From the IMG/VR virus record IMGVR_UViG_3300028840_006907, positions 288,001 to 352,000 of that record: a stretch of DNA of 64,000 nt. One strand, written 5' to 3'. The notes under the pieces were generated by a model. It did not search any database. It saw nothing but the letters and a program-made list of their open reading frames with translations, and was not told the origin of the DNA. Source of the stretch: a virus. Made by a program: the position numbers and the translations under genes. Every line of letters begins with the position of its first letter. Position 1 is the stretch's first letter. This document shows positions 10,281-37,344 of this stretch, piece after piece.

Positions 10281-10342
10281 AAATTAGATATAAGAAGTCT
10301 CATTGAGACTATTCAATAAAATAATAAATAGGAATAAAAAAG

Positions 10343-11146: not shown

Positions 11147-11176
11147 ATTTACATATAGATATTGAAAGGAGATTGT

Positions 11177-12154: not shown

Positions 12155-12856
12155 ATGGAATTAATAACAAAAGCAGTTATAATGGCTGGTGGAGAGGGTA
12201 CTCGGTTAAGACCTTATACAGAAATGACTCCTAAAGCAATGTTAGAGGTTAACGGTATTCCTCTCTTACGTTTAATGATAGAGAGACTTCATAGTTTTGG
12301 TATAACTCATTTCTATTTAAGTGTAAATTATCTCTCGAAAGTAATCTGTGATTATTTCGGTGATGGATCTAAATTTGGGATTAATATCACTTATATAAAA
12401 GAACCTTATTCGATGGGGACCGCAGGTTCAATTAGTATGGTTGATATTGAAGAACCTTTTTTGGTTATAAATGGAGATGTTTATACCAGTCTTGATTTTA
12501 GAGATCTCTTTGTAGAATTTAGAAGATCTAAATCAGATCTATTAATATGTTGTAGGGAGCAATTATTAAAAACAGATTATGGTGTTATTGTAAAAGAAGA
12601 TGACAGGATAACTTCCTGGGTTGAAAAACCTGAGTTTACTCATTACATAAGTTGTGGTATCTATGTATTCAAACCAGAGATTGTAAAATATATACCTAAA
12701 GAACATTTTTTTAATATGAATCATTTAGCTGAAGCGGTTATTGAAAAGAATAAAAAAGCTGGATTTTATTTAATGGATGATCTAGATATCTGGATTGATA
12801 TAGGAACTATTGAAGAATATAATAAGGTCAAGGAATTGTTAACAGTAAAAAAATAA
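12155..12856 (+). CDS. sugar-1-phosphate nucleotidyltransferase
   Basis: AVIMAGGEGTRLRPYTEMTPKAMLEV matches the GGxGTRLxPxTxxxPK NTP_transferase signature. Confidence 0.85.
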   Translation: MELITKAVIMAGGEGTRLRPYTEMTPKAMLEVNGIPLLRLMIERLHSFGITHFYLSVNYLSKVICDYFGDGSKFGINITYIKEPYSMGTAGSISMVDIEEPFLVINGDVYTSLDFRDLFVEFRRSKSDLLICCREQLLKTDYGVIVKEDDRITSWVEKPEFTHYISCGIYVFKPEIVKYIPKEHFFNMNHLAEAVIEKNKKAGFYLMDDLDIWIDIGTIEEYNKVKELLTVKK

Positions 12857-12865
12857 GAGGATAAA

Positions 12866-13759
12866 GTGAGAGTTGTATTTATTGGTTGCGTCAATTTCAG
12901 TAAAGCAATGTTGGAATATGCTTTAGAAATAGAGTGCCTTGAAATAGTGGGTATCGTGACAAAATCAGAATCCAATTTTAATACAGATTTCTGTTCTTTG
13001 GCCCCTTTAGCCCAGGAACATAATATTTCTTATCTTTTATACGATCAATTAAAATCGGAAAGTGGACTCAATAGTTGGGTTGAATTAAAATTTCCTGATG
13101 TGATCTTTTGTTTTGGTTGGTCCCATTTATTAAAAGCTGAACTTATAGAAATTCCTAAAATAGGAGTCATAGGACATCATCCTACAATGCTTCCTAAGAA
13201 TAGAGGGCGACATCCAGTAATATGGGCGTTAGCTTTAGGATTGGAGTATACTGCTTCAACTTTTTTCTTTATAGATCCTGGGGTGGATTCTGGGGATATT
13301 CTAGATCAAATCCCTGTAAATATAAATTTTGATGATGATGCTAGTATTCTCTATCAGAAGATCACAGTGACTGCAGGAAAGCAATTAAAAACATTTTCTC
13401 CTCTTTTGGAGAAAGGAGAATATATAGTTGTTAAACAAGATATGAGTAAAGCTACATGGTGGAGAAAAAGGTCAAAAGCTGATGGATATATTGATTGGCG
13501 TATGAGTTGTTTTTCCATTCATAATTTAGTCCGGGCTTTGACTTGTCCTTATGTAGGGGCTCATTGTGAATTTAACAATAGGGATATAAAGATCTGGAAA
13601 GTTAGAATAATGTATAAAGGATTAGATGATATTGAACCAGGTAAAATAATCGATTTAAATAGAAATAAAAATGAAATCTATATAAAGTGCGGGGATGGAG
13701 TTATGTGTATCTATGATCATGAATTTGATCCTCTGCCTGAGATCGGAACTTATTTATGA
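12866..13759 (+). CDS. sugar N-formyltransferase (Fmt/ArnA-N family)
   Basis: GTG start with RBS aagagg; HHPTMLPKNRGRHPVIWAL (SLLPxxRG-type) and IDPGVDSGDIL motifs; C-terminal Fmt-like domain. Confidence 0.8.
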   Translation: MRVVFIGCVNFSKAMLEYALEIECLEIVGIVTKSESNFNTDFCSLAPLAQEHNISYLLYDQLKSESGLNSWVELKFPDVIFCFGWSHLLKAELIEIPKIGVIGHHPTMLPKNRGRHPVIWALALGLEYTASTFFFIDPGVDSGDILDQIPVNINFDDDASILYQKITVTAGKQLKTFSPLLEKGEYIVVKQDMSKATWWRKRSKADGYIDWRMSCFSIHNLVRALTCPYVGAHCEFNNRDIKIWKVRIMYKGLDDIEPGKIIDLNRNKNEIYIKCGDGVMCIYDHEFDPLPEIGTYL

Positions 13760-14415
13760 AAATTATTGCCATTGCACCTCATCCTGATGATGAGACTCTG
13801 GGATGTGGTGGTACACTCTTGAAGCATCGGGATGCCTCAGATGATATTTATTTGGTTCTTGTTACTACAGCAGGTTCTGAATACAGTGAAGAGCATATCA
13901 ATAATAAATACAAAGAAATAGATAATGCCAACGAGATTTTTGAATTTAAGACTATCTTCGATTTGGGTTTCCCTGTTACTCATATTGGTTCTATAGATAT
14001 ATCAGAAATAATTGGTAAACTAATGGACACATTTAAATTAGTGGGTCCCGATATTATTTATGTTCCTTTCCCGTATGATATTCATACTGATCATCAAGTT
14101 GTTTTTGATGCGGTTTCTTCGTGTACAAAATGGTTCAGAATACCTACTTTGAAAAGAATACTAGCCTATGAAACTATATCTGAAACAGATTTTATTATTA
14201 GACCCGGTCCTTCTTTTATCCCTAATGTTTTTGTCAATATTGAAGATCACATTGATAAAAAGATAGAGGCTATGAAATGCTATGCTAGTGAAATTGCTAT
14301 GCCTCCTTTTCCTCGTAGTGAGGAGAATATCAGAGCCCTGGCAACATTAAGAGGTTCAACATCTGGTTTCAAAGCTGCGGAAGCTTTCATGTTGTTAAAG
14401 GAGATAGATGAATGA
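13756..14415 (+). CDS. PIG-L/LmbE family deacetylase
   Basis: AIAPHPDDETLGCGGTLLKH signature; HTDH downstream; ATGA coupling to upstream gene. Confidence 0.85.
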   Translation: MKIIAIAPHPDDETLGCGGTLLKHRDASDDIYLVLVTTAGSEYSEEHINNKYKEIDNANEIFEFKTIFDLGFPVTHIGSIDISEIIGKLMDTFKLVGPDIIYVPFPYDIHTDHQVVFDAVSSCTKWFRIPTLKRILAYETISETDFIIRPGPSFIPNVFVNIEDHIDKKIEAMKCYASEIAMPPFPRSEENIRALATLRGSTSGFKAAEAFMLLKEIDE

Positions 14416-15380
14416 GTAAAAAAGTTTTAGTTACTGGTGCAGGAGGATTTATAGGATCTCATTTAGTAAAACGGCTCATGGAATATGGGTATGATGTTAC
14501 AGCACTGGTAAAATATAATGCAAATGGTTCTTGGGGCTGGTTAGACACATTTCATCGTTCTGTAATCAAAGATATTAGAGTAGAGTTGGGTGATGTTCGG
14601 GATCCGGAACAAATGATGAGATATAAAAACATGGATATTATTTTCCATTTAGCTGCTTTGATAGGTATCCCTTATTCCTATGTAGCTCCTCGTTCATATG
14701 TCGATACCAATATAAACGGTACTTTAAACATGCTTCAGGTTTGTCGGGAAAATGGAGCTACTTATATTCATACATCAACTTCTGAGGTATATGGTACAGC
14801 CCTTTATGAACCTATTGATGAAAAACATCCTATCCAAACACAGAGTCCATATTCAGCTACAAAAAGTGCTGGAGATAGTTTAGCAAAGAGTTATTATCTT
14901 TCCTTCGATTTGCCCGTTATTATAGTAAGACCATTCAATACTTTTGGAACACGTCAATCTTTAAGAGCTGTTATTCCCACTATTATCAGTCAGGCATGTA
15001 AAGATGATGTTATAAAACTTGGAGATCCAAGTACCATGAGAGATTTCATTTTTGTGGATGATACTGTAGAAGGCTTTATAAAGGCCGCTGAGAGGGGAAA
15101 ATCTGGAGAGACTTATAATATAGGTTATGGCAAAAAAAGGTCAATAAGAAGTATTGTGGATGACGTAGGCAATATATTAGGTAAAGTTTTAAAAATTGAA
15201 TCGGAACCAGAGAGAATGCGACCTCCGAAGAGTGAGGTAAGAGTTCTTGTTTGTAATAATGAAAAAGCAAAAAAAGAATTGGGATGGGATATTAAATGGC
15301 CTTTTAAAAAAGGGTTGGAATATTTGATCTACGATTGGCAACGAGAAAACAAAGAAAGTAAAGATTTTTATCATGTCTAG
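14412..15380 (+). CDS. NAD-dependent nucleotide-sugar 4,6-dehydratase/decarboxylase-type SDR
   Basis: VTGAGGFIGSHL, TSTSEVYG, YSATKSAGD (YxxxK). Confidence 0.85.
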   Translation: MSKKVLVTGAGGFIGSHLVKRLMEYGYDVTALVKYNANGSWGWLDTFHRSVIKDIRVELGDVRDPEQMMRYKNMDIIFHLAALIGIPYSYVAPRSYVDTNINGTLNMLQVCRENGATYIHTSTSEVYGTALYEPIDEKHPIQTQSPYSATKSAGDSLAKSYYLSFDLPVIIVRPFNTFGTRQSLRAVIPTIISQACKDDVIKLGDPSTMRDFIFVDDTVEGFIKAAERGKSGETYNIGYGKKRSIRSIVDDVGNILGKVLKIESEPERMRPPKSEVRVLVCNNEKAKKELGWDIKWPFKKGLEYLIYDWQRENKESKDFYHV

Positions 15381-16449
15381 TATATTTTTACACATACCTC
15401 ATATAGGGGAAGAGGAAAAGGCAGAAGTAAATAAGGCTCTTAATACTGGAGAATTGACCTGTGGAAATTATTTAAATCAATTTGAAAAAGAATTAAGTGA
15501 AAGGATAAATTCTCCTGTTGTTTTATGCTCTTCTGGAACAGCAGCTTTGCAATTAGGTCTACATGCTATGGGTATAGGTCCAGGAGATGAAGTAATTGTT
15601 CCTAATATGTCTTTTGTTTCGACTATAAATTCTGTTTTATATATGGGTGCTACCCCAGTTTTGTGCGATGTAGGTGATCCTGAATACGAGCTTTCCATTG
15701 ATCCTGAAGAAATAATCGATCTCATAACTCCTCGAACTAAAGCTATAATGGTATCTCATCTTTGTGGGGGATACGGTGACATTGAAAAGATATTAGATAT
15801 AGCTAGTGCGTATAAAGTTGATGTCATTGAAGATGCTGCTCAGGCAGTAGGTTGTACTATGAATGGCAAAGCTTTGGGAACATTTGGAAAGTTTGGTGTC
15901 TATTCATTTAATGGGAATAAAATTATCACCACAGGTGGTGGAGGCACTCTTTTAACTTCAGATCGTGGAATGAGTCAGAGAGTACGAAATCTTCTTAATC
16001 AAGCGAAAGACATTTTAAATCCTTTTTCTCATATAGAGATGGGGTATAATTATAGAATCAGTAATATCCATGCTGCGATAGGTTGTGCTCAATTAAAAAA
16101 ATTAGACTCTTTTATTGATAAGAAAAAATTTATTCATGAGACCTATAAAAAGAAGTTAGACATAATAACTTATAAGGAAAAATCCAATTATTGGTTGAAT
16201 GTTTATAAAGTAAAAAAATTTAATCCTTATGAAGCTGTTTGGAATCTGGATTACAAAAGCATAGAGACTCGTCCTATTTATACCCCTTTTCATATGATGG
16301 ATTTTCTTAAAAAATATGGTGAGGATGAATACCCGGTTTCAGAGAAATTATATAACAGTCTTTTTTGTTTGCCATCTTATTTATCTCTTGATGAAGAGAT
16401 AATCGATAAAGTAGTGGATGAAATAAATAATTTGGAGAATAGTGAATGA
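15373..16449 (+). CDS. DegT/DnrJ/EryC1/StrS family sugar aminotransferase
   Basis: SGTAALQLGLHAMGIGPGDEVIVPNMSFVST and SFNGNKIITTGGGG (PLP lysine region). Confidence 0.9.
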   Translation: MSSIFLHIPHIGEEEKAEVNKALNTGELTCGNYLNQFEKELSERINSPVVLCSSGTAALQLGLHAMGIGPGDEVIVPNMSFVSTINSVLYMGATPVLCDVGDPEYELSIDPEEIIDLITPRTKAIMVSHLCGGYGDIEKILDIASAYKVDVIEDAAQAVGCTMNGKALGTFGKFGVYSFNGNKIITTGGGGTLLTSDRGMSQRVRNLLNQAKDILNPFSHIEMGYNYRISNIHAAIGCAQLKKLDSFIDKKKFIHETYKKKLDIITYKEKSNYWLNVYKVKKFNPYEAVWNLDYKSIETRPIYTPFHMMDFLKKYGEDEYPVSEKLYNSLFCLPSYLSLDEEIIDKVVDEINNLENSE

Positions 16450-17141
16450 AAAAACATATCCTTTTGATGTTTAATATGGGAAATAGTGGTGGGAAGTATT
16501 TCGAAGATATTTGTAATACTCACGAAGATGTTCAGATATGGCAAGAAGCAAATCACCTTTTAAAAGTAGATCATCTTGAGACACCAGTTCAGTTCGACAG
16601 GGTATATGCTTTTTTCATGAAACAGTATGAAGAAAATAAGAAAAAAACCATCGGATTAATAAAAGCTTTTGATCATCGGTTAATAGGATTGGCTGAAAGA
16701 ACTGGTGGGTCTATCATGCAGATGTTCAGACATCCTGTAGGTGTGGTGGGTTTTAAGACAGGCCATAAAATGGCTGAGTGTGAACAGAGAGGTTTGTTTG
16801 ACAAACTAGACACACCTGAAAAGATTTTTGAAGCTCATGTGGATTTTTATGCCTCAATATATAATTCCTATACGAAGAATGCTCATAAGTGGCCTGTTGT
16901 TAAATTAGAGGATTTAAAAAAGTCTTTACGGGAAAGAACTCCGTATTTTGAAGATGTAATGAAAAAAGCGCTGAAAGTTGACTGGCAACCGAAACATACA
17001 AAAAAAGTTATTAATATGGGAGGGCTTGAAGAGAATAGAGATCATTTTGATATTTGGAAATCATGGGAAGATTGGAAGAAAGATATTTTTCTGAAGTATT
17101 TCCAGGAAATAATGAAATTGTATATGTATGAATGGGAATGA
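16446..17141 (+). CDS. sulfotransferase-fold-like protein, paralogue A
   Basis: MFNMGNSGGKYF (P-loop-like) and MFRHPVGVV (RxP) motifs; clear paralogue of 20367-21158 (IGLIKAFDH, HVDFY, LEDL, IWKSWEDWKK). Confidence 0.4.
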   Translation: MKKHILLMFNMGNSGGKYFEDICNTHEDVQIWQEANHLLKVDHLETPVQFDRVYAFFMKQYEENKKKTIGLIKAFDHRLIGLAERTGGSIMQMFRHPVGVVGFKTGHKMAECEQRGLFDKLDTPEKIFEAHVDFYASIYNSYTKNAHKWPVVKLEDLKKSLRERTPYFEDVMKKALKVDWQPKHTKKVINMGGLEENRDHFDIWKSWEDWKKDIFLKYFQEIMKLYMYEWE

Positions 17142-17155
17142 TAGGAGGACGAAGT

Positions 17156-18151
17156 ATGAAAAATTTGGAAATCATAGCTGAGTTCGGAACTAATCATGTC
17201 GATCCTAATGGTAAAGTTCTTGAAAATATTGAGGATTTGATACATACACTAGCAGACAAAGGAGCGACTGCAGTTAAATTTCAGCTTTTTAAAGCTGATA
17301 ATTTAGTAGAAAAGAATACTGAAGTACATGGCCTTATAAAAAATTTGGAAATTGCTCTTGAAGAGCATGTCAGATTAAAAAAGATCTGCGAAGAAATAGG
17401 TTTGCGGTATCTTTGCACTCCTTTTTGCGTTGAGTCTTTGGATGCTCTTCTTAGTATAGGAGTAAAGGAAATAAAAATAGCCAGTTGTGATTGTGGTAAT
17501 TTACAATTGATGTCAGATATTGTACAACGTCATAACAAAATTCATCGAGTTATAATGGCTACAGGTATGTCAACATTGAATGAAATTGGTGTTTCCATTG
17601 ACATCCTTATTGATGGAGGATTTAATATTGATCTTTTACATTGTACAAGTGTTTACCCTACACCGATATACCGAGCTTCTCTAGACATGATAAGAGTCTT
17701 AAAAAAGAAGTGGGGTTTATTTAATATAGGATATTCGGATCATACATTGGGGACTGAAGTGGTGGGTATAGCCCGAGCTATGGGTTGTACCATTTTTGAA
17801 AAGCATGTAACTCCTGATAGAACAATGCCCGGTTTTGATCATGCTTATTCTTTTCCTATTGATGAATTTGATAAATATGTCGATGCTATCAAGAATGTCG
17901 ATCAGATAATAGGAGAAGAAAGAAAATACGTAGATAAAAAAGAAGCAGTATCTCGTGATGCCATGAAAAGAGGCATATGGTTTAAAAAAGAAGTGTTTAA
18001 AGGGCAGAAAATAACCAGAGATGATATCATTGTACGAAGACCGTTGAAAGGGGCCGTTAACCAGACTTACTATTTTTCTGTTCTTGGTAAAAAAGTAAAG
18101 AAGAATTTTAATGAGGATGATCCCGTTTTAACGGAGAATTTATATGAGTAA
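17156..18151 (+). CDS. nonulosonic acid synthase (NeuB/PseI/LegI family)
   Basis: RBS taggagg, ATG 17156; IIAEFGTNH...AVKFQLF N-terminal signature; YSDHTLG; C-terminal SAF-like segment. Confidence 0.85.
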   Translation: MKNLEIIAEFGTNHVDPNGKVLENIEDLIHTLADKGATAVKFQLFKADNLVEKNTEVHGLIKNLEIALEEHVRLKKICEEIGLRYLCTPFCVESLDALLSIGVKEIKIASCDCGNLQLMSDIVQRHNKIHRVIMATGMSTLNEIGVSIDILIDGGFNIDLLHCTSVYPTPIYRASLDMIRVLKKKWGLFNIGYSDHTLGTEVVGIARAMGCTIFEKHVTPDRTMPGFDHAYSFPIDEFDKYVDAIKNVDQIIGEERKYVDKKEAVSRDAMKRGIWFKKEVFKGQKITRDDIIVRRPLKGAVNQTYYFSVLGKKVKKNFNEDDPVLTENLYE

Positions 18152-19052
18152 AATAGGAATTCGATGTGATTGTGGACCGGTAATGGGCATGGGTCATATA
18201 TCTAGGCAGAAACTTATTTATGAAGAACTCATGAAATTGGACCACGAAGTTTCTTTTTTTGTAAAAAGAGAACGGAACATAGTTAAATCAATGGGACTTC
18301 CACTTTCAAATAAGATTTTAATGGATACAATGGATACTTTGATAATTGATTTAGTGGAAGGTTTTGAGGATTATGATTTTCCTCGAACTAAAATAGTTTT
18401 TTATGATGGTCCGGAAATGATACATTGTGATGCTGATATCATTTTTGCTTTAAATTATAAACAACAGAAATCCTGGTATAGAGGAACGGGTTATTATGTT
18501 GGGCTAGATTATATCCCGATGGATCCCAGCATTTCTAAAATAGAGAAAGAATTTGGTAATTTAGAAAAAATATTAATTATGACAAGTGGAATCGATCCTT
18601 GGGATATGCCAGGACAAATAGTTAGAGTTATTAAGGATCTGGGTTATGACATCACAGTTAAATTATCTAATGCTTATCCAAAAGATTGGATCAGTAAACT
18701 TGAGAAACATGCTGAGATAATTTTAAATGTGGATAGTGTTGCTTCATTATATGAAGAATATGATTTAATGATATGTACTGCAGGAAATGTGTTGTTCGAG
18801 GCTGCTGTAGCTGGTTTACCCTGTATAAGTTTTTCGACGGGTAAAGTTCAGGAGGGCCATGGGGCGTTTATGAGTGACAAAGGTTTTTCAGTTCATCTTG
18901 GAGGCTTTTGGAATAATACTGCTGAAGTTGGTTATTTGTCTGATGCTATAAAATTTTTAGCTGATAGATCGGATAGAGAACAAAGATCTGAGATAGGTCG
19001 TTCTATTTGTGATGGTAAAGGATTAGAAAGGATAATAAATATTATAGGGTAA
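18144..19052 (+). CDS. PseG-like nucleotide-sugar hydrolase / GT28-type protein
   Basis: IGIRCDCGPVMGMGHISRQ resembles the PseG GxGHxxR start; C-terminal TAGNVLFEAAVAGLPCI resembles the MurG/GT28 C-domain. Confidence 0.55.
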   Translation: MSKIGIRCDCGPVMGMGHISRQKLIYEELMKLDHEVSFFVKRERNIVKSMGLPLSNKILMDTMDTLIIDLVEGFEDYDFPRTKIVFYDGPEMIHCDADIIFALNYKQQKSWYRGTGYYVGLDYIPMDPSISKIEKEFGNLEKILIMTSGIDPWDMPGQIVRVIKDLGYDITVKLSNAYPKDWISKLEKHAEIILNVDSVASLYEEYDLMICTAGNVLFEAAVAGLPCISFSTGKVQEGHGAFMSDKGFSVHLGGFWNNTAEVGYLSDAIKFLADRSDREQRSEIGRSICDGKGLERIINIIG

Positions 19053-19055
19053 AAT

Positions 19056-19718
19056 ATGAAAACTATCGCATTTACATTGCCAGTAAGAAAGAACAGTCAA
19101 AGAGTAAAAAATAAAATGTTAAGACCTTTTGCAGGGAGAAGTTTATTTGAGATCTATTTGGATAAAATCGAATGTTTCAAACATTTGGTTTATGTTGTTG
19201 CCTATGAAGAAGAATTTATTAACATAGCTAAAAAAAGGGGATTTAAATATCTTCATAGAAGTGAAGAGTCTGCTAATGGGGAAACTTCTCCAGTTATCCA
19301 TAGTTATTTAAATGAGATGAAAGAAGATTTCATTTTTATGGCAACTGCGTGTTGTCCTTTGATGAAGACAGAGACTTTGAAAAATATCATGGTAGAGCTA
19401 TGTTCAAAACTCCATGATCCTAATTATCACGGTTTAATAACTGTAAAAAGATGTGGTAATGCTATTTGGAATTCAGAGAAGAAAGTAATGAATGATGATG
19501 TTCGAACTTTCAATACTAAGTTAAGAAAACCTTTTTACATCGAGACTAGTTCCGTTTTTGTTTTTAGACGTGAAAGATTTCTTAAACTAGGTGCATATTG
19601 GGATTTTGGTGATAAAGATCCCGATCTTTATGAAATTAATTCAATTGAAGCTACTGATATTGATACAATGGATGATTTCGAAGTAGCTGAAATACTTTAC
19701 AAAAGAAGGTTGTCATGA
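19056..19718 (+). CDS. CMP-nonulosonate cytidylyltransferase family (NeuA/PseF-like)
   Basis: LPVRKNSQRVKNKMLRPFAGRSL resembles the R-x-S-x-R-x-x-x-KN...G-x-(S/P)-L signature; ~220 aa. Confidence 0.6.
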   Translation: MKTIAFTLPVRKNSQRVKNKMLRPFAGRSLFEIYLDKIECFKHLVYVVAYEEEFINIAKKRGFKYLHRSEESANGETSPVIHSYLNEMKEDFIFMATACCPLMKTETLKNIMVELCSKLHDPNYHGLITVKRCGNAIWNSEKKVMNDDVRTFNTKLRKPFYIETSSVFVFRRERFLKLGAYWDFGDKDPDLYEINSIEATDIDTMDDFEVAEILYKRRLS

Positions 19719-20374
19719 AAAATTATGGCTATGCTGATATGAGTGAAAAAGAAAAATTATCTAAAGAACAAGTATTAGAATTTTGGAAAAATCCTATAAA
19801 CGATAATACTAATAAAAATGAGAACAATGATCCTGAGCATTATTTGAGTGGGGAAAAACGTAGCCGATATCTCGTTGAATTAATTAAAAGGCATTTACAT
19901 AAAGAAGCAAAAATATTAGAGATTGGTTGTAATGTCGGGAGGAATTTGCATTATCTATATGAAACAGGTTATAACAATTTAAATGGGATAGAAATTAATG
20001 ATAATGCTGTTCAAGTGATGCATAAAAATTATCCCGAATTATATGGAAGTGTAGGAATTTATAATTGTCCGGTTGAATCTATTATTACATCTTTTTCCGA
20101 TGAAGCCTATGACTTGGTCTTTACAATGGCTGTTTTAGAGCACATTCATTATGAGAGTGATTTCATTTTCTCTGAGATAGCTCGGGTAGCCAAAAGATGT
20201 ATAATTACAATTGAAGATGAAAAAACTACCTGGAGTAACAGACATTTTCCTCGTAATTATAAGGAGGTGTTTGAGAAGATCGGGAATTGGGTACAGATTT
20301 ATGATATGAATTGTGGTGGGATTAATATACTTGATGATCGATTTTGGGTAAGGGTATTTAAAAAGAATGTCTAA
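19715..20374 (+). CDS. class I SAM-dependent methyltransferase
   Basis: ILEIGCNVGRNL (motif I) and DLVFTMAVLEHI. Confidence 0.75.
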   Translation: MKNYGYADMSEKEKLSKEQVLEFWKNPINDNTNKNENNDPEHYLSGEKRSRYLVELIKRHLHKEAKILEIGCNVGRNLHYLYETGYNNLNGIEINDNAVQVMHKNYPELYGSVGIYNCPVESIITSFSDEAYDLVFTMAVLEHIHYESDFIFSEIARVAKRCIITIEDEKTTWSNRHFPRNYKEVFEKIGNWVQIYDMNCGGINILDDRFWVRVFKKNV

Positions 20375-21158
20375 ACGAATAGTGTTAGTCAGAAATATGG
20401 GAAACAGTGGCGGTGCCTGGTTAATGAAGGTATTTAATATGCATGAAAACATATTAATGTTTCAGGAATTAAACCAGATACTGAGGTTAAGATATGATTA
20501 TTCGGATATAAATAAGAAGAATCTAAATTACCCTCATGTTGACTATGATGTAAAAATAGCTCAACGGAGTCGTGATCTTAAAGGATTTTTATTTAATAGT
20601 AGAACTCAGTGTCATATAGCAACTAGTTTTCTTTTATATCAATATGATATTAGAAAAGAAGATGCGATTGGGTTAATAAAATGTTTTGATCATGAATCTA
20701 TAAGAGAATGTAGAGTAAAATGTCCTTCTGTTAAAGTTGTACAAGTTTTAAGAAATCCTATTGGTATAATAGATTTTTATATGAGTCAGGAAAATTTAAG
20801 GCAAATAGCCCATCATGATCCATATGAAATATCTTTTAAAAAACATGTGGATTTCTTTCATAATAAATTTATAGATTTTTGGGAAAATAATGAAAAAAAA
20901 GGTGAGAAAATTATACGACTAGAAGATTTGAATATATCATTGAAAGATGGAAATCCTTTCTTAAAAGACACTATGGAAGATTTATTTGAAGTTAATTTCT
21001 CAAATGAATTTATTGAAAAAATCAAACAAAATTTAGGTTATGGGAATGAAGGTAACCAGAATAAAGAGATATGGCAAAACTGGGAAGGATGGAAAAAAGA
21101 ATATTTCAAGAAATATTTCGAAAATCTAATGATGAATCTTGGCTATGAATTGAGGTGA
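20367..21158 (+). CDS. sulfotransferase-fold-like protein, paralogue B
   Basis: LVRNMGNSGGAWL and VLRNPIGIIDFY; paralogue of 16446-17141. Confidence 0.4.
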   Translation: MSKRIVLVRNMGNSGGAWLMKVFNMHENILMFQELNQILRLRYDYSDINKKNLNYPHVDYDVKIAQRSRDLKGFLFNSRTQCHIATSFLLYQYDIRKEDAIGLIKCFDHESIRECRVKCPSVKVVQVLRNPIGIIDFYMSQENLRQIAHHDPYEISFKKHVDFFHNKFIDFWENNEKKGEKIIRLEDLNISLKDGNPFLKDTMEDLFEVNFSNEFIEKIKQNLGYGNEGNQNKEIWQNWEGWKKEYFKKYFENLMMNLGYELR

Positions 21159-21161
21159 TAA

Positions 21162-21737
21162 ATGAATTTATTTGAATCTGCGTACTATACTGAAGAGGAT
21201 CTGAGAAAAGGCGGTTTTAAAAGTGTCGGTAAAAATGTTCAGATTGATAAAAGTTGCACGATAATAGGCTTAGATAAAATCACTCTAGGAGATAATGTTC
21301 GAATCGATGGTTACTGTTGTATTATTGCCACAAAAGAGGAAGTGATTTTCGGTTCTTATATTCATATAGGTTCGTTTTGTCATCTCTGTGGAACTGCAGG
21401 TCTTATAATGAAAGATTTTTCAGGTTTGTCACAAGGAGTTCGAATTTACTCCTCTTCTGATGATTATTCAGGAAAGTTTTTAACTAATCCAACTGTTCCC
21501 GATAAATACACAGGTATAATAAGAGAACCAGTTATTATAGGTAAACATGTTATAATCGGGGCTAATACTGTTATTCTTCCAGGAGTTGTTATAGGTGATG
21601 GGTCAGCTATTGGTGCCATGTCCCTTGTAACAAAAGACGTAGATAAAAATAGTGTCTATGCAGGTTGTCCAGCGAAATTTATAAAAACACGTTCAAAAAG
21701 AATATTTGATTTAGAGAAGAGGTTATTAAATGAATAA
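21162..21737 (+). CDS. left-handed beta-helix (hexapeptide repeat) acetyltransferase
   Basis: Hexapeptide periodicity, e.g. GKHVIIGANTVILPGVVIGDGSAIGAMSLVTKDV. Confidence 0.85.
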   Translation: MNLFESAYYTEEDLRKGGFKSVGKNVQIDKSCTIIGLDKITLGDNVRIDGYCCIIATKEEVIFGSYIHIGSFCHLCGTAGLIMKDFSGLSQGVRIYSSSDDYSGKFLTNPTVPDKYTGIIREPVIIGKHVIIGANTVILPGVVIGDGSAIGAMSLVTKDVDKNSVYAGCPAKFIKTRSKRIFDLEKRLLNE

Positions 21738-22443
21738 ATCAATTTTCATATGTTCAGGAGGTCGATGTGGTACACATTGGGTTCGGCCTATTCTTGCTCA
21801 GCTTTTAGATTTACAAACTGGGTTTGATTGGAAAGGATATAATCCAAATAAAATTCCCTTTAAAACAGAACCTGGAGCTATTTGGAAAATAAAGATGGTA
21901 GAAAAGAGAGAGCCAGGAGGAAGGATTTATTCAGGGCATATGCCAATTACAGAACTTCTACCTATTATCAGTTTAGTAAATATAATAATTCTTATAAGAG
22001 ATCCTAGAGATATGTGTGTTTCGGCTGCATATTATACTCCAGAAAGAAGAGTATTAACTCAAGAAGAATTTGAATCTAAATTTAATAATTTATTAATACA
22101 AGGAAGCCCGAATCCTGATTTTCATGAATCTTATATAGAAAGTAAGAATAAAATACCTCATTTTTTATTAAAATATGAAGATATGATTCATGATGATTAT
22201 GGCTCAATAGTTAAATTTTTAAATAATTCAGGTTATAAATTTGAAGAAGAAAAATTAAAATATGTACTTGATAAAAACTCATTCAAGAATTTATCAGGTG
22301 GACGAGAAGCCGGTGAGGAGGATAATACCGCTTTTTATAGAAAAGGTATTGTGGGTGATTGGGTAAATTATCTCTCTAATGGTTTACTTGAACAATATAC
22401 CGATAGGCATAAAACTTTGTTGGAAGAATGGGGGTATATGTAA
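21730..22443 (+). CDS. sulfotransferase (Sulfotransfer_1-like)
   Basis: 5'-PSB-like GGRCGTHW, 3'-PB-like IRDPRDMCVSAAYY, and FYRKGIVGDWVNY (RKGxxGDW). Confidence 0.8.
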   Translation: MNKSIFICSGGRCGTHWVRPILAQLLDLQTGFDWKGYNPNKIPFKTEPGAIWKIKMVEKREPGGRIYSGHMPITELLPIISLVNIIILIRDPRDMCVSAAYYTPERRVLTQEEFESKFNNLLIQGSPNPDFHESYIESKNKIPHFLLKYEDMIHDDYGSIVKFLNNSGYKFEEEKLKYVLDKNSFKNLSGGREAGEEDNTAFYRKGIVGDWVNYLSNGLLEQYTDRHKTLLEEWGYM

Positions 22444-22444
22444 T

Positions 22445-23116
22445 ATGGAAGATTATTTTGAACAAATGGTAACAGTTTTTAAAAAGTACTTTAAAGAGTA
22501 TTATCGTAATGTATTCACAAATCAATCAGTGGAAACCTGTACAGGTATTTATAATCTTTGTAAAAAAGAAAATCCAGATCAAGTAGTGGAAATGGGAACC
22601 AATCATGGGGCTTCTACTCTTTCTATAGTAAAAGCACTGACTGATTTAGGGAAAGATTTGTCTATTATTACTTCAATTGATTTAGACCACGAGAAATGGA
22701 AGGCAACATTTAATATACAAAAAGAATTGATTAAAAAGTATGATTTAAATTTAGGAAAAGTAAAATTAATAACTCAAGATTTTAATTCAGTAGATCCTGT
22801 AGAAATAATTGACCCTGAAAAGAAAGTATTTATTTTTTATGATATGCATGATCATCGAGGCCCATGGTCACAGAGACTACTTGATTTATGGGTACCTTTA
22901 GTTAAGAATGGTGTCTTCTCTATTCATGATGTAACTCCTGTAAGTGAATCCTTTGAAATAGTTCAGGATAAAATTTCCCCTCGAACAAAGATACAGTATA
23001 AGAGTGGGCAGTATTTTGCAGGTTTCAATGAATGTTTTCGAATAATAAAATGGGCAAATACAAATAACATAAATATAGAGATATTTCCAGGAGGAGTATA
23101 TTTCAGAAATGGCTAA
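22445..23116 (+). CDS. putative class I methyltransferase-like protein
   Basis: ATG 22445 follows upstream stop (track start 22379 overlaps); VVEMGTNHGASTL glycine-rich loop; FIFYDMHDH. Confidence 0.45.
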   Translation: MEDYFEQMVTVFKKYFKEYYRNVFTNQSVETCTGIYNLCKKENPDQVVEMGTNHGASTLSIVKALTDLGKDLSIITSIDLDHEKWKATFNIQKELIKKYDLNLGKVKLITQDFNSVDPVEIIDPEKKVFIFYDMHDHRGPWSQRLLDLWVPLVKNGVFSIHDVTPVSESFEIVQDKISPRTKIQYKSGQYFAGFNECFRIIKWANTNNINIEIFPGGVYFRNG

Positions 23117-23795
23117 CATTTTTATTGGAAAAAATATGTCAAATATAAAAAATATTCCTGGTTTAAATAAAATAACAAAGATACATGATGTGGCTGATTA
23201 TGTGAGATTAGCTGATTTTGTCTATAAAACAATTTCCCATTCTATGGATAGTGGGATTGATTTAGATTATTCTGTTAATCAATTGTATTGGCAATTTGTG
23301 AATAAAAAGAGATTTGGATGGTGCTATATGCATGCTCTGTATTATCATCTTATAGTACAAGAATATGGTCGTGAATCTTTTGTTTATGATTATGGCTTAC
23401 CAGCGCCACAATTAACTCATAGTGTTGTTGTAGTAACTTTACGTGATGATAAGTATTTAATTGATCCTTATTTTAATCGTTATTATGTAACAGAAAAAGG
23501 GAATCCGTATACATTTCCTGACTTATTGGCTATGATAAAAACTGATCCAACAAAAATTTATAGTAAATATGGACCTGGTTTGAAAGAAGTTAAACAGGGA
23601 GATAAATATATAGAAACTTCTCCTGAACAATTTGAAAAAGGAGTATTGGAATCGTGGCGAGTAAATCAGAATTATGATAAAATAATGATGGAAAAATTTA
23701 ATAGCACAAATGCATTATTATTAATGCATTGTAAAGTACAAAAAGCTAAAGTATGTAAAAAAATAGATGGGACAAAGTATTTTGACTTTTTCTAA
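23109..23795 (+). CDS. hypothetical protein
   Basis: 228-aa ORF coupled to upstream gene (ATG overlaps stop); GWCYMHALYY could be a Cys-His site, but the fold was not recognised. Confidence 0.4.
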   Translation: MANIFIGKNMSNIKNIPGLNKITKIHDVADYVRLADFVYKTISHSMDSGIDLDYSVNQLYWQFVNKKRFGWCYMHALYYHLIVQEYGRESFVYDYGLPAPQLTHSVVVVTLRDDKYLIDPYFNRYYVTEKGNPYTFPDLLAMIKTDPTKIYSKYGPGLKEVKQGDKYIETSPEQFEKGVLESWRVNQNYDKIMMEKFNSTNALLLMHCKVQKAKVCKKIDGTKYFDFF

Positions 23796-24570
23796 TGTTA
23801 TATCCTTTATCAGTGCATTTAAAAAGTTTAAACCTCCTTATGGTATGATACAGCATTCTGCTATGTATTCATGGAATGCTAATAATATTGAAGTATTTGT
23901 TCCAGATAATGAGGTTGGAGTTAAAGATGCTTGTCAGAGTTATCCTAATATTAAATTAATCCCCGATGTTAAACGGGCTCGGGAAATGGGCTTTTCAAAT
24001 CAGTCTCCTATGGTAAAAGATCTGATTGCAAAAGCTCTACCTTTAATCAATACTCCGATGGTAGCTTTAATTAATTCAGACATTATAATTCAACCTGATT
24101 TTATAGAAAGAATAGAAAAAATACTGAAAGAATACGGTTTTGATATTTATATGGTGGGAACTCGATTTGATATTAAATTGGATATTCATATAAGTTCGGA
24201 AGAGACATATAAACAGGTATTGAGTTCAGAACGAAAAAGTTATGATGGCAGTACTTCTTCAGATATATTTATAGCTTCTAAATTTACCTGGAGGAAGATA
24301 GTTCATGAAATGCCTGATTTTATTCTAGGTCGGTATGGGTGGGATAATTGGTTACATATGATTGCAGAACTTAAAGGATATCGTAAATTTAATTGTACAG
24401 ATGCTTTGACTATTCTTCATTGTGAGCATGATCATAAGCATATAGTTCTTCAGGAAAAGGCTGAAAAACAAAGTGCTCCAAGTTCACAGCATAATTTAAA
24501 GTTATGGAATGAAGTAAAAAATGTTTATGGGACGACCAGGATAAATGCATGGCCAAAAATTGAAATATAA
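23767..24570 (+). CDS. hypothetical protein, possible glycosyltransferase
   Basis: ALINSDIIIQPDF acidic motif; start uncertain (23767 or ATG 23845). Confidence 0.35.
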   Translation: MGQSILTFSNVISFISAFKKFKPPYGMIQHSAMYSWNANNIEVFVPDNEVGVKDACQSYPNIKLIPDVKRAREMGFSNQSPMVKDLIAKALPLINTPMVALINSDIIIQPDFIERIEKILKEYGFDIYMVGTRFDIKLDIHISSEETYKQVLSSERKSYDGSTSSDIFIASKFTWRKIVHEMPDFILGRYGWDNWLHMIAELKGYRKFNCTDALTILHCEHDHKHIVLQEKAEKQSAPSSQHNLKLWNEVKNVYGTTRINAWPKIEI

Positions 24571-24598
24571 TAGGGGTAAAGAAGTTTCTCTACCCCTA
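24571..24598 (+). terminator. stem-loop after gene 23767-24570 (no U-tract)
   Basis: TAGGGGTA (24571-24578) pairs with TACCCCTA (24591-24598) around a 12-nt loop; no following T-run, so terminator function is uncertain. Confidence 0.3.
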
Positions 24599-24661
24599 CA
24601 TGCACATTTTAACCACAATCCCATCTTATGGCTAAAAATATAATAAAAGGATGATACAAGA

Positions 24662-29545: not shown

Positions 29546-30038
29546 TTAGCATCATAGAGGTTTCCCATTTTGCTGCCTCTTTATAATGGTATAAAATTTC
29601 TTCTGAGTTATTTAATCTGATAACAGGAAAATCTACCATTTTCGATACAGCTTCAGTATGGTCCTGGACATGAGTTATGCAACTATATAAAGGTTTTTCT
29701 TTTTTCCCAATGACAACTCTTATAATCACTTTAGGATCGTAATCACCGTTTGACATAACTTTTATTTTGTCTAAATGATTTACTATTGAATCTAGTGCAT
29801 TTAAAACAAAATCAAATCGTTCAAAATAAACAATTGGTTTGTATCCTCTGATGCTCATTCCTATGGCCATTCCTGCCATTAAGTTCTCGGCTACAGGTGT
29901 TTCGATTAATTGAGATTCCGGAACATCAATTAAGGTATTAGCTGCTCTAGTGTATTTTGTATTATATCCTATAAATACTGTTTTTTCTTGTTTAGCCAAT
30001 TCATTCATCGAGTATTTAAGAGCATCTATATATCGCAT
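29514..30038 (-). CDS. E1 beta-like (transketolase pyrimidine-binding) subunit, lacks the C-terminal domain
   Basis: MRYIDALKYSMNELAKQEKTVFIGYN...LIETPVAENLMAGMAIGMSIRGYKPIV follows the E1 beta N-terminal pattern; only 174 aa. Confidence 0.7.
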   Translation of the reverse strand: MRYIDALKYSMNELAKQEKTVFIGYNTKYTRAANTLIDVPESQLIETPVAENLMAGMAIGMSIRGYKPIVYFERFDFVLNALDSIVNHLDKIKVMSNGDYDPKVIIRVVIGKKEKPLYSCITHVQDHTEAVSKMVDFPVIRLNNSEEILYHYKEAAKWETSMMLIETRGFYDNE

Positions 30039-37337: not shown

Positions 37338-37344
37338 TTTTTTC

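Follow-up and report, generated by a model that had tools for sequence, protein, structure and literature searches.

A probably virus-borne gene cluster predicted to encode a pathway to a CMP-activated, N-formylated 5,7-diamino nonulosonic acid

PseJ gives rise to Pse5Ac7Fo, i.e. a 7-N-formylated sugar, and to our knowledge 3- or 4-amino groups are the targets of all sugar N-formyltransferases characterised so far (ArnA, PseJ, VioF and others), with none acting on a 2-amino group. 5-N-formyl-legionaminic acid has been chemically established in Halorubrum sp. PV6, the legionaminic acid (Leg) cluster of which has a predicted formyltransferase adjoining LegG, a NeuC homologue, and NeuD (PMC6137143). 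A Leg-type cluster with a deacetylase and a formyltransferase is also described for Kuenenia, together with CMP-nonulosonic acids that bear one formyl group and one free amine (bioRxiv 10.64898/2026.04.20.719630). We note that these two formyltransferases are only putative members of the family described below, which weakens the comparison.

The cluster studied here occupies positions 12155-21737 of a 64,000-nucleotide stretch of IMG/VR record IMGVR_UViG_3300028840_006907 (the window). ORF and family scans give 12 genes, all on the plus strand and mostly overlapping, and this probably virus-borne core of a glycan island probably leads to a CMP-5,7-diamino-3,5,7,9-tetradeoxynon-2-ulosonic acid with one N-formyl and one N-acyl group. 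An earlier note, written from the sequence alone, had proposed the enzyme set for a CMP-activated 5,7-diamino nonulosonic acid, and family and profile matches across the cluster support it. All ten functions that it named were found on the plus strand where it had placed them, but its list missed the 12-gene total by omitting the ORFs at 16446-17141 and 20367-21158. Consecutive genes had been described as coupled, and since the distances between them are only -10 to +9 bases from 12155 to 21737, translational coupling is real. Identical proteins are encoded by independent JGI, Logan, ENA and NCBI assemblies, and the gene order is repeated in two other contigs, L004 and L006, at 53-63% amino-acid identity; chance or misassembly can therefore not account for the arrangement. 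The GC content is 0.330 inside the cluster vs 0.334 outside.

The formyltransferase (12866..13759, plus strand) is an ArnA/Fmt-like N-formyltransferase with a C-terminal domain (PF00551, Formyl_trans_N, and PF02911, Formyl_trans_C). It is about 51% identical to orthologues in the Leg-type clusters of Brevibacillus and Nitrospirota, and it scores 109 bits to the formyltransferase domain of ArnA, its best solved relative in the PDB, and 41 bits to PseJ. Of the catalytic triad, the His and Asp are unchanged, but the canonical Asn (N102 of ArnA) is replaced by Gly, as it is in all but 4 of the approximately 120 closest homologues, the motif not being located in those 4. Every characterised formyltransferase known to us keeps the catalytic Asn, and because of the Gly, formyl transfer by this family is an assumption. 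The stop of this gene is overlapped by 4 bases by the start of a PIG-L/LmbE-family zinc N-deacetylase (13756..14415, plus strand; PF02585, E 9.5e-21), whose metal motifs PHPDDE and HTDH are visible in an alignment to diacetylchitobiose deacetylase. We propose that the deacetylase would take off the 2-N-acetyl group, i.e. the substituent on N5 of the finished sugar, and that the formyltransferase would act on the amine so exposed.

Relatives of the formyltransferase were found in GTDB species genomes (272), and the neighbourhood was examined in 80 bacterial loci taken from these. A PIG-L gene lies beside it in 75 of the 80 loci and a NeuC-type epimerase in 74, whilst NeuB, LegC and LegB are present in 65, 61 and 55, respectively; a PglD/NeuD-like N-acetyltransferase is seen at a fixed position in 58. 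In other words, the formyltransferase and the deacetylase are a conserved adjacent pair of Leg-type clusters across many bacterial phyla. Their place within a nonulosonic acid pathway, as suggested previously, is upheld, but they are a fixed pair rather than additions to it.

The first gene of the cluster encodes a sugar-1-phosphate nucleotidylyltransferase of 233 aa without CBS domains (12155..12856, plus strand; PF00483, NTP_transferase, E 5e-37) that presumably makes the NDP-HexNAc starter. Its top NCBIfam matches, none of which reaches the cut-off, are to mannose-1-P guanylyltransferase and the archaeal GlmU N-terminal domain. The NTP-transferase adjoining NeuB in the L007 cluster shares 45% identity with it, and the PtmE-like (CBS + NTP) genes found in the bacterial modules share 32-34%. 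The extended SDR at 14412..15380 (plus strand) is a LegB-type NDP-GlcNAc 4,6-dehydratase (TIGR04180, 390 bits, E 4.5e-117, cut-off 475) with recognisable GxxGxxG, STSEVYG and YxxxK motifs and 51-52% identity to dehydratases from NeuC-containing bacterial clusters. It is followed by a LegC-type PLP aminotransferase of the DegT family, acting at C4 (15373..16449, plus strand; TIGR04181, 304 bits, E 1.4e-90, cut-off 420), which has the SFNGNK lysine motif and counts GDP-perosamine synthases and PglE among its PDB neighbours; its identity is 48% to the DegT protein of L007 and only 31-33% to bacterial LegC genes. The front end had been called pseudaminic/legionaminic-type, and it is the legionaminic half of that label that stands (LegB 390 vs PseB 58 bits; LegC 304 vs PseC 207 bits). 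We note that the scores of the core enzymes to curated NCBIfam families are all below the cut-offs, which counts against the pathway proposed here.

An Arn-like route had also been considered, in which Ugd (8931-10280, plus strand; TIGR03026, 335 bits), an SDR decarboxylase, the aminotransferase and the formyltransferase would produce an NDP-4-formamido-pentose. It fits with the ArnA N-terminal domain being the closest solved relative of the formyltransferase and with the position of Ugd 2.6 kb upstream, but the decarboxylating SDR is missing. The SDR adjoining Ugd is a GDP-mannose 3,5-epimerase (11162-12151, plus strand; 353 bits, E 1.5e-104, to Arabidopsis GDP-mannose 3',5'-epimerase), and the LegB-type protein has only 41 bits to ArnA and 57 to UDP-4-keto-pentose/UDP-xylose synthase, the ArnA-like decarboxylase. 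For the aminotransferase, the ArnB model gives 178 bits where its cut-off is 631. Ugd is found with the formyltransferase in just 7 of the 80 bacterial loci, compared with 65 for NeuB and 75 for PIG-L, and members of the ArnC, ArnD and ArnT families had no match among the scanned ORFs of the glycan island. We regard this route as extremely improbable. Ugd, a conserved unknown protein (10343-11146, plus strand) and the epimerase form the same trio 5' of the cluster in L004 and L006; the genes at 8931-12151 supply other sugars and are outside the nonulosonic acid route.

The condensing enzyme is a NeuB-family synthase (17132..18151, plus strand; PF03102, E 2.8e-58, with a SAF domain) that has the GYSDHT and EKH metal motifs. 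Its scores are 244 bits to NeuB_NnaB and 179 to PseI, both below cut-off, and its identity is 46.5% to the NeuB of L007 vs 30-31% to bacterial NeuB/LegI genes. The CMP-nonulosonic acid synthetase (19056..19718, plus strand; PF02348, CTP_transf_3, E 5e-10) is very divergent, with 48 bits to PseF (TIGR03584, below cut-off) and 23% identity to a bacterial counterpart.

Between the two lies a protein with a short GT-B fold, a divergent PseG-type nucleotide-sugar hydrolase (18144..19052, plus strand; TIGR03590, E 2e-17, below cut-off). The bacterial modules have a NeuC-type hydrolysing 2-epimerase, whereas in this cluster a rare and very divergent PseG-type hydrolase is found adjoining NeuB, and no NeuC homologue was found anywhere in the window. 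In Foldseek, ordinary GT1/GT28 glycosyltransferases come out ahead of PseG, which counts against our assignment; the protein could then be a true glycosyltransferase for a nonulosonic acid or another sugar, the nucleotide being released by a host NeuC or PseG or by some other route. We consider this very unlikely. A search of 1.84 billion representative proteins gives true PseG proteins as its closest kin, in line with the earlier PseG-like call, and some of these are fused to PseH, a cytidylyltransferase or NeuB. The protein is short, as PseG is (302 vs 282 aa), and shares with it the R-x-D...G-x-G-H motif, in which the catalytic His aligns; the gene is always coupled to NeuB, even in the unrelated L007 cluster, and there is no other candidate for the essential nucleotide-releasing step. 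With a PseG-type hydrolase, the stereochemistry of the sugar can be inferred: a LegB/LegC front end followed by a non-epimerising hydrolase predicts a gluco-configured aldose. We know of no characterised NeuB-family enzyme that uses such a substrate, so either one of the assignments may be in error or the set may lack an epimerase.

The last gene of the cluster (21162..21737, plus strand) had been labelled a hexapeptide acetyltransferase. The hexapeptide family is correct, but the acetyl label needs amending: the protein is a left-handed beta-helix N-acyltransferase that matches AntD over its full length (157 bits, E 4e-45, PDB 3vbi-3vbp). In B. cereus, AntD serves as the N-acyltransferase for dTDP-4-amino-4,6-dideoxyglucose (PMC6031040), and its acyl donor is given there as a hydroxyacyl-CoA and not acetyl-CoA (Kubiak and Holden 2012, cited in PMC6031040). 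The AntD-like enzyme is proposed to acylate the 4-amino group, i.e. the future N7. In the same slot L006 has a NeuD/PglD/VioB-family N-acetyltransferase (149 bits) and L004 a short formyltransferase, so that three non-orthologous enzymes, all from families known to acylate NDP-4-amino sugars, occur in this position within the virus lineage.

The position of the formyl group was judged from these comparisons. The bacterial modules already have a 4-N-acetyltransferase, which leaves the formyltransferase and PIG-L for N2 of the hexose, and the analysis favours 5-N-formylation, i.e. the exchange of the 2-N-acetyl group for formyl, over the 7-N-formyl precedent invoked by the earlier note. The opposite placement, in which the formyltransferase would act on the LegC-made 4-amine to give a 7-N-formyl group and the AntD-like enzyme would re-acylate the PIG-L-freed N5 with a non-acetyl group, yielding for instance a 5-N-hydroxyacyl-7-N-formyl sugar, we consider unlikely. 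It is favoured by the substrates of all characterised sugar N-formyltransferases known to us, ArnA and PseJ included, which are NDP-4-amino or 3-amino sugars; the hydroxyacyl donor of AntD also suits it, and the Kuenenia mass data are silent on which nitrogen is formylated. However, where a PglD-like enzyme of the 4-amine-acetylating family is present (58 of 80 modules), no substrate would remain for the formyltransferase, and the enzymes that interchange in the AntD slot all belong to 4-amino-sugar families. Moreover, the sole chemically defined formylated Leg linked to such a cluster is the 5-N-formyl one (PMC6137143), and the Kuenenia cluster with its deacetylase and formyltransferase is likewise taken to favour N5.

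With 5-N-formylation as the preferred reading, with gene functions taken from homology and with the step order and substrates inferred, the pathway would run as follows. The nucleotidyltransferase would provide NDP-GlcNAc, the LegB-type enzyme would dehydrate it at C4/C6 and the LegC-type enzyme would aminate C4; the AntD-like transferase would acylate the new 4-amine, PIG-L would remove the original 2-N-acetyl group and the ArnA-like enzyme would place formyl on the exposed amine. The PseG-type enzyme would then hydrolyse off the nucleotide without 2-epimerisation, NeuB would condense the free aldose with PEP, and the cytidylyltransferase would activate the product with CTP. A methyltransferase, two sulfotransferase-fold paralogues, and a downstream sulfotransferase and methyltransferases may modify the sugar itself or the completed glycan. 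Judging from the sequence identities, the cluster is a mosaic: the formyltransferase, PIG-L and LegB come from a widespread bacterial NeuC-Fmt-PIG-L legionaminic module, and the NTP-transferase, NeuB, PseG-like and DegT genes from a different, rare lineage. It is distinguished from the common bacterial module by the rare PseG type in place of NeuC, by the AntD-like N-acyltransferase and by the two sulfotransferase-fold paralogues.

The first paralogue (16446..17141, plus strand, 231 aa) has no Pfam or NCBIfam match and only 11 homologues among 5.8 billion proteins. Its AlphaFold2 model (pLDDT 86.6) retrieved PAPS sulfotransferases as all of the top 30 Foldseek hits in the PDB (E 6e-5, TM about 0.5). 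The gene is missing from the otherwise syntenic L004 and is therefore not a core enzyme; it may be a putative accessory tailoring enzyme. The second paralogue (20367..21158, plus strand, 263 aa; 29% identity to the first, E 2e-34) is found in L004 and L006, and both have invariant N-x-G-N-x-G-G and R-x-P-x-G motifs. The SAM-dependent methyltransferase at 19715..20374 (plus strand; Methyltransf_11/25/31, weak match to the Pse-associated methylase TIGR03587) is 29-31% identical over about 120 aa to methyltransferases of the Brevibacillus module.

The same-strand array exceeds the limits set earlier, reaching at least 4336 upstream, with a glycosyltransferase, Ugd and the GDP-mannose 3,5-epimerase, and 25480 downstream, with a sulfotransferase, methyltransferases and unknown proteins. 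The sulfotransferase (21730..22443, plus strand) is a canonical PAPS enzyme (PF00685, Sulfotransfer_1, E 1.1e-22) kept in position in L004 and L006 and may serve tailoring or glycan sulfation. It is followed at 22379..25480 (plus strand) by a Methyltransf_24 protein, which in the JGI gene call starts at about window position 22445, two unknown proteins (228 and 267 aa) and a 272-aa SAM methyltransferase, in an order kept in L006 and partly in L004. The earlier note had overlooked that NeuC is lacking, as well as the two sulfotransferase-fold paralogues and the probable viral context.

The cluster sits within a glycan island of about 35 kb on a viral-looking contig of 388-470 kb, and the most likely carrier is a huge, prokaryote-infecting tailed virus, i.e. 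a giant phage, that would decorate the virion or the infected-cell surface with the sugar by its own glycosyltransferases. Alternatively, the contig could belong to an undescribed prokaryote with a small genome, either as part of the cellular genome or as a large plasmid-like element, and the cluster would serve the envelope of that cell. No capsid, portal or terminase genes were seen in the approximately 90 kb inspected, PHROG matches are few, and a search of IMG/VR did not return the window's own contig, as a cellular or plasmid origin would have it. But almost all ORFs of these 90 kb lack a family assignment, the same 90 kb have no tRNA, rRNA, ribosomal or other housekeeping genes except thymidylate kinase, the genome is not in the GTDB species set, and genes of phage type are present, namely a Mom/HNH/D5-like protein, a Tad3 protein and a 1228-aa protein whose C-terminus matches tail-fibre proteins of T4-like phages; we hold a cellular or plasmid carrier to be unlikely. 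Over window 36.2-48.5 kb, gene order is shared with a related viral-classified contig, IMG/VR UViG_3300038499_000016 (collinear, 40-68% amino-acid identity), and a Kyanoviridae cyanophage encodes a homologue of the GDP-mannose epimerase with 60% identity.

The cluster at 12155-21737 consists of twelve open reading frames, all on the + strand and with intergenic gaps of -10 to +9 bases. An earlier note had named ten of them, and profile searches gave the same assignment for all ten: a nucleotidyltransferase (12155), a formyltransferase with both Fmt domains (12866), a PIG-L deacetylase (13756), an extended SDR (14412), a DegT aminotransferase (15373), a NeuB synthase (17132), a weak PseG match (18144), a cytidylyltransferase (19056), a SAM methyltransferase (19715) and a hexapeptide transferase (21162). 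The nonulosonic acid (NulO) pathway recognised there is real in terms of profile matches, catalytic motifs and synteny, and the cluster as it was observed is confirmed. The two remaining ORFs, at 16446 and 20367, had been overlooked; they form a paralogous pair (29% identity, E 2e-34), and profile searches gave no family match for either. The GC content is 0.330 within the cluster and 0.334 outside it, and identical proteins are encoded on contigs of independent JGI, Logan, ENA and NCBI assemblies. Moreover, two diverged contigs, L004 and L006, have the same gene order as the window, with proteins that are 53-63% identical.

The enzymes were placed (e.g. NeuB vs. LegI vs. PseI) by HMM scores. 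For the SDR at 14412 the LegB model TIGR04180 is by far the best, with 390 bits (curated cut-off 475), and the lower scores are those of PseB TIGR03589 (58 bits, cut-off 408), of the UDP-4-keto-pentose/UDP-xylose synthase model, i.e. an ArnA-like decarboxylase (57 bits), and of ArnA (41 bits). This protein is 51-52% identical to the dehydratases of NeuC-containing clusters. The aminotransferase at 15373 follows the same order, i.e. LegC TIGR04181 (304 bits, cut-off 420) > PseC TIGR03588 (207 bits, cut-off 424) > ArnB (178 bits, cut-off 631), and is merely 31-33% identical to the LegC genes of bacterial clusters. The synthase at 17132 matches PF03102 (E 2.8e-58) with its metal motifs present, and scores higher on the NeuB/LegI-type model NeuB_NnaB (244 bits) than on PseI TIGR03586 (179 bits, cut-off 340); it stays below the equivalog cut-offs, as does the cytidylyltransferase at 19056 (PF02348, E 5e-10). 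Since the scores of the SDR, the aminotransferase and the synthase are all under the curated cut-offs, these three are classed as divergent family members. When aligned to solved structures, the SDR shows GxxGxxG, STSEVYG and YxxxK, the aminotransferase has the motif of the PLP lysine, the synthase carries GYSDHT and EKH, and the PIG-L protein at 13756 carries PHPDDE and HTDH.

The ranking of the LegB, LegC and NeuB scores and the catalytic motifs together identify the predicted front end of the pathway as legionaminic-type. In other words, the broader label pseudaminic/legionaminic can be narrowed to its second half: LegB and LegC lead, and PseB, PseC and PseI all score lower. By model scores neither the PseB/PseC pair nor PseI/PseH, which mark the pseudaminic pathway, was recovered in the cluster, and profile searches found no match to PseH or another GNAT-type protein among its genes. 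An Arn-like route to a 4-formamido pentose had been suggested as an alternative and is not supported by the data. Both SDRs are otherwise assigned (the one at 14412 as LegB-type, the one at 11162 as GDP-mannose 3,5-epimerase), so that the decarboxylating SDR is absent; the aminotransferase is weak on ArnB; and the gene for the formyltransferase shows tight linkage with PIG-L and NeuB, not with Ugd. No ArnC-, ArnD- or ArnT-like families were found among the scanned proteins of the glycan island that encloses the cluster.

The formyltransferase at 12866 has thousands of homologues, and the closest named ones (~50% identical) are from Brevibacillus, Virgibacillus, Paenibacillus, Nitrospiraceae and Bacteroidota. 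The homologue lies in a flagellin glycosylation island in Brevibacillus and in a polysaccharide locus in a Nitrospiraceae genome, and the order in both is SDR, DegT, Epimerase_2 (NeuC), Fmt, PIG-L, NeuB, methyltransferase, CBS-NTP-transferase, cytidylyltransferase. A GTDB scan with one genome per species gave 272 relatives, and 80 loci from many phyla were examined. PIG-L is directly downstream of Fmt in 75 of the 80 loci and a NeuC-like gene is directly upstream in 74; NeuB (65/80), LegC (61/80) and LegB (55/80) are found nearby, a PglD/NeuD-like N-acetyltransferase occupies a fixed position in 58/80, and Ugd is near in 7/80. In the window the Fmt and PIG-L genes overlap by 4 bases, and the NTP-transferase stands directly upstream in place of a NeuC-type gene. 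The window motif IGHHPT fits the family pattern [IVL]-G-[YFH]-H-P-[AT]. The subfamily, including the window protein, has Gly at the canonical Asn (ArnA N102) and keeps the His and the Asp; the Gly-for-Asn pattern was seen in all of the ~120 closest homologues (P0011-P0133) except for 4 in which the motif was not located. To our knowledge, the catalytic Asn (ArnA N102) is universally conserved in formyltransferases. Judged by its gene neighbourhoods, the Fmt-PIG-L pair is a standard, phylum-spanning accessory of legionaminic-type clusters, with a predicted activity; the module is common in bacteria and barely characterised.

The known bacterial counterparts are LegB-LegC-(PglD-like)-NeuC-Fmt-PIG-L-NeuB-PtmE-LegF clusters, found in the Brevibacillus flagellin glycosylation island, in Nitrospirota polysaccharide loci and in Kuenenia (bioRxiv 10.64898/2026.04.20.719630). 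The window shares with them the Fmt-PIG-L adjacency, the Gly-for-Asn motif, ~51% identity of Fmt, PIG-L and LegB, the overall enzyme logic and a methyltransferase close by. In contrast, the window has no NeuC, and a PseG-type gene adjoins NeuB, while a PseG-like protein of this family occurs in none of the 80 bacterial Fmt loci. Identity falls to 23-34% for NeuB, LegC, the cytidylyltransferase and the NTP-transferase, which is devoid of CBS domains; an AntD-like N-acyltransferase stands in place of a PglD-like one, two sulfotransferase-fold paralogues are added, and the carrier is probably viral. Fmt, PIG-L and LegB, at ~51% identity to the bacterial module, have no counterpart in L007, a marine-sediment contig, whereas LegC, NeuB and the NTP-transferase are 30-34% identical to the bacterial module and 45-48% identical to L007. 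On these pairwise identities the cluster is read as a mosaic. On L007 (130-7066), NeuB and a PseG-like gene that shares 36% identity with that of the window are accompanied by an NTP-transferase, DegT, a GFO/IDH/MocA oxidoreductase, two methyltransferases and a PglD-like acetyltransferase; this 7 kb contig shows no 4,6-dehydratase, and its gene set may represent a different amino-NulO route.

Profile searches found no Epimerase_2 match among the cluster proteins, and tblastn with two bacterial NeuC-like proteins found no NeuC homologue in the window (best E 0.14). The PseG-like protein at 18144 has 302 amino acids, and its gene is coupled to NeuB. A word search in 5.8 billion proteins gave only nine homologues, and when 1.84 billion representatives were searched exhaustively with the profile, three proteins scored above 435 bits, after which the scores fell to 168 bits. 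In this next tier, 10 of the 10 sampled relatives are PseG by the NCBIfam model, among them proteins fused with PseH, with a cytidylyltransferase, or with both NeuB and a cytidylyltransferase. The family profile aligns across the whole C. jejuni PseG with the invariant His18 on the catalytic His17, and a R-x-D...G-x-G-H motif is common to both. The homologue searches, the next-tier PseG proteins and this alignment make it probable that 18144 is a divergent PseG-type hydrolase. Scans with the family alignment gave no relatives in GTDB species genomes or in IMG/VR, which indicates a rare family. Among the distant relatives, P0182 (927 aa) joins NeuB, cytidylyltransferase and PseG, P0163 (583 aa) cytidylyltransferase and PseG, and P0148 (484 aa) PseG and PseH; the synthase domain of the triple fusion scores 302 bits on NeuB_NnaB and 257 bits on PseI.

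The Pse pathway of Campylobacter jejuni and Helicobacter pylori (PseB, C, H, G, I, F) likewise relies on a PseG-type hydrolase, which yields the aldose with no 2-epimerisation; a NeuB-family synthase and a cytidylyltransferase act next, and tetrahydrofolate-dependent N-formylation is known there (PseJ, PDB 6ci2; Pse5Ac7Fo). In contrast, the dehydratase and the aminotransferase of the window are not PseB/PseC-type, a GNAT-type PseH is missing, and the synthase scores higher on NeuB/LegI; the formyltransferase of the window resembles ArnA and has a C-terminal domain, unlike the short PseJ.

If LegB is retaining, LegC gluco-forming and the PseG-type hydrolase non-epimerising, the three would produce a 2,4-diamino-2,4,6-trideoxy-D-glucose derivative, whose condensation with PEP would give legionaminic acid epimerised at C5, with D-glycero-D-gulo or D-glycero-D-ido configuration. 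We know of no report of a C5 epimer of legionaminic acid in these configurations. One of the divergent enzymes may instead follow another stereochemical course; no spare epimerase was found, the sole other SDR, at 11162, being the GDP-mannose 3,5-epimerase. That SDR was also considered as a C5/C3 epimerase leading to the L-series in the manner of Pen/Pal, which was ruled out by its clear orthology to GDP-mannose 3,5-epimerase. The complete scenario, in which a huge prokaryotic virus makes its own activated NulO as an undescribed stereoisomer by passing a bacillosamine-configured aldose to NeuB, seems unlikely to us. Such an isomer would be 5-N-formylated and 7-N-acylated, possibly with sulfate or methyl, and the glycosyltransferases of the virus would attach it to the virion or to the infected cell's surface. 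The use of a PseG-type enzyme for NeuC is a natural experiment on how NulO stereochemistry is set, and may hint at a new isomer.

The protein at 21162 is a full-length homologue of AntD (157 bits, E 4e-45), the dTDP-4-amino-4,6-dideoxyglucose N-acyltransferase of B. cereus (PMC6031040). It is not PglD-type, as NeuD_NnaD gives merely 48 bits on the C-terminal repeats, and it is a plausible functional equivalent of the LegH/PglD 4-N-acetyltransferase. An O-acetyltransferase, after the top NCBIfam match WbbJ, was dropped, as the full-length AntD match points to an N-acyltransferase.

The slot directly before the sulfotransferase gene is filled by three non-orthologous enzymes across the virus lineage, namely the AntD homologue in the window, a NeuD/PglD/VioB-family acetyltransferase in L006 (149 bits) and a short formyltransferase in L004. 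All three are from families that acylate 4-amino sugars, which favours formylation at N5. PIG-L and Fmt would swap the original 2-N-acetyl for formyl: in bacterial modules the PglD-like enzyme is from a family that acetylates the 4-amine, so the deacetylase and Fmt would be left to exchange the 2-N-acetyl. These gene patterns lead us to favour a formyl group on N5 (= N2 of the hexose precursor) over N7. The 4-amine may be formylated instead, as by PseJ, and all characterised sugar formyltransferases do act on a 3- or 4-amine. Placement on N5, by analogy, agrees with the published chemistry of two organisms. The N-glycan of Halorubrum sp. PV6 is capped by 5-N-formyl-legionaminic acid, and its Leg cluster has a predicted formyltransferase beside LegG (NeuC homologue) and NeuD (PMC6137143); the CMP-NulOs of Kuenenia carry one formyl and one free amine, and its Leg-type cluster has a deacetylase and a formyltransferase (bioRxiv 10.64898/2026.04.20.719630). 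We offer the rule that PIG-L and this type of Fmt replace the N5-acetyl by formyl, N7 being acylated where a 4-N-acyltransferase is present and a free amine where it is absent. Such a rule would permit the prediction of surface-sugar chemistry from genomes.

Halorubrum sp. PV6 resembles the window in further respects, i.e. LegB, LegC, LegI and LegF with a predicted formyltransferase and a NeuD-type acetyltransferase, and an N-formylated 5,7-diamino NulO as product. Its glycan also has sulfate and a hexuronic acid, and genes for Ugd and sulfotransferases are present in the window; unlike the window, Halorubrum uses LegG, a NeuC homologue, and no deacetylase is reported (PMC6137143). The two formyltransferases are likened by description, not by sequence. 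The GC content of haloarchaea is unlike the 33% of the window.

The 231-aa protein of ORF 16446 was modelled with an alignment built from database homologues (pLDDT 86.6), and its top Foldseek matches are exclusively PAPS sulfotransferases. The paralogue family is tiny, with 11 homologues. By our own reading of the motif, the PAPS-binding loop is G-N-S-G-G, in which an invariant Asn replaces Lys/Arg, and the R-x-P motif is kept; the reference is the 5'-PSB loop P-K/R-S-G-T-T and the 3'-PB motif. L004 lacks the copy between LegC and NeuB, so the paralogues at 16446 and 20367 are putative tailoring and not core enzymes. A canonical sulfotransferase is next in the array, at 21730. Outside the island, a 192-aa ORF at 49032-49610 (+) has a PHROG match to galactose-3-O-sulfotransferase (E 1e-7).

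The glycan island, at ~4.3-40 kb of the window, contains multi-domain glycosyltransferase-methyltransferase proteins, Ugd, the GDP-mannose epimerase, several methyltransferases, GT2 and GT10-like genes, and a split TPP enzyme around a radical SAM gene. The multi-domain proteins are a GT2+GT1+MTase protein at 4336-7320 (+; 994 aa) and an MTase+GT2 protein at 34711-36765 (-; 684 aa), and a GT2+MTase+TPR protein of 693 aa is encoded directly upstream of the window (L094 6022-8103). The radical SAM gene (28478-29545) lies at 27859-30038 (-) between two TPP-dependent halves, E1_dh/DXP_synthase_N-like (27859-28485) and Transket_pyr-like (29514-30038), which may form a branched-chain or keto-sugar side pathway; FkbM methyltransferase, GT10-like and GT2 genes are near. 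The gene at 11162-12151 (+) is an orthologue of GDP-mannose 3',5'-epimerase (353 bits, E 1.5e-104 to the Arabidopsis enzyme), which implies that GDP-L-galactose or GDP-L-gulose would be made for the same island. The NTP-transferase at 12155 may be a GDP-mannose enzyme that serves this epimerase; however, its closest relative adjoins NeuB in L007, a contig without GDP-mannose epimerase. A homologue of 11162, 60% identical, is found in the Kyanoviridae cyanophage AG-345-L05 (L013 3919-4941) near DegT and NeuB-like genes. Between Ugd and the epimerase a 267-aa ORF without family match (10343-11146, +) fills a position that is also filled in L004 and L006. The Ugd orthologue of L004 (681-2603, 640 aa) has an intein-splicing domain, whereas the window Ugd (449 aa) has none.

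Beyond the island, almost all ORFs of the ~90 kb that were read have no family assignment, and no tRNA, rRNA or housekeeping genes were found in the rest of this stretch. Those with similarities include an 835-aa protein with DUF7487, Mom-like DNA-modification and HNH/homing-endonuclease/D5-like regions (53409-55916, -) and a Tad3-family protein (~50824-51252; L003 846-1274). Very large ORFs (1228, 1158, 741 and >1305 aa) lie at 59979-63665 (+) and downstream (L003 13718-23687); over its last ~150 residues the 1228-aa ORF is similar to the tail-fibre proteins of a Flavobacterium phage and of T4-like cyanophages. A viral-classified IMG/VR contig is collinear with 36.2-48.5 kb of the window at 40-68% amino-acid identity, and the contigs bearing the cluster are 388 and 470 kb. 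From the unassigned ORFs, the Mom/Tad3/tail-fibre-like proteins, the collinear contig and the contig sizes we hold it likely that the carrier is a huge tailed virus. Two results count against a virus, i.e. no capsid, portal or terminase genes were found in the ~90 kb read of the 388 kb contig, and the IMG/VR scan with the PseG-like family alignment did not recover the contig of the window. Megablast of 40-64 kb of the window and tblastn of the 1158-aa and 741-aa proteins gave no match to deposited phages, and of 20 window ORFs scanned against PHROG, only the Mom/HNH protein, one sulfotransferase-like ORF and one P-loop ORF gave a match. A Laminin_G_3 domain is present in the 741-aa protein. 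In the related IMG/VR contig L011 (2674-2681) a ~2.3 kb segment of the window (36753-39064) is missing, and upstream of that point L011 has no similarity to the glycan island of the window, so the island is a variable region of this virus lineage.

What is new in the cluster is that a PseG-type protein replaces NeuC, that the acyltransferase is AntD-like, that two sulfotransferase-fold paralogues are present, and that the carrier is probably viral. The carrier would be a probable virus with its own sialic-acid-like sugar, i.e. with a complete pathway as well as glycosyltransferases, sulfotransferases and methyltransferases. For the common but unstudied Fmt-deacetylase gene pair, the comparative data yield a predicted general rule that is testable. 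The Megavirinae glycan clusters (PMC10117803) are alike in that a large virus has its own nucleotide-sugar pathways and glycosyltransferases, but that paper uses neither the word 'pseudaminic' nor 'legionaminic'. Giant eukaryotic viruses are known to make other rare sugars; in the open-access literature we found neither a phage case nor one for 5,7-diamino NulOs, and no description of a phage-encoded 5,7-diamino NulO pathway. In phages, NeuB-like genes do occur next to SDR, DegT or cytidylyltransferase-like genes, namely in the unannotated records of Kyanoviridae AG-345-L05 and of the uncultured 484 kb phage LR756508.1, but are only 26-29% identical to that of the window. In LR756508.1 (307757-338572) a stretch of 15 kb holds a NeuB-like gene together with two SDR genes and one cytidylyltransferase-like gene, and this locus may represent another virus-borne ulosonic acid pathway.
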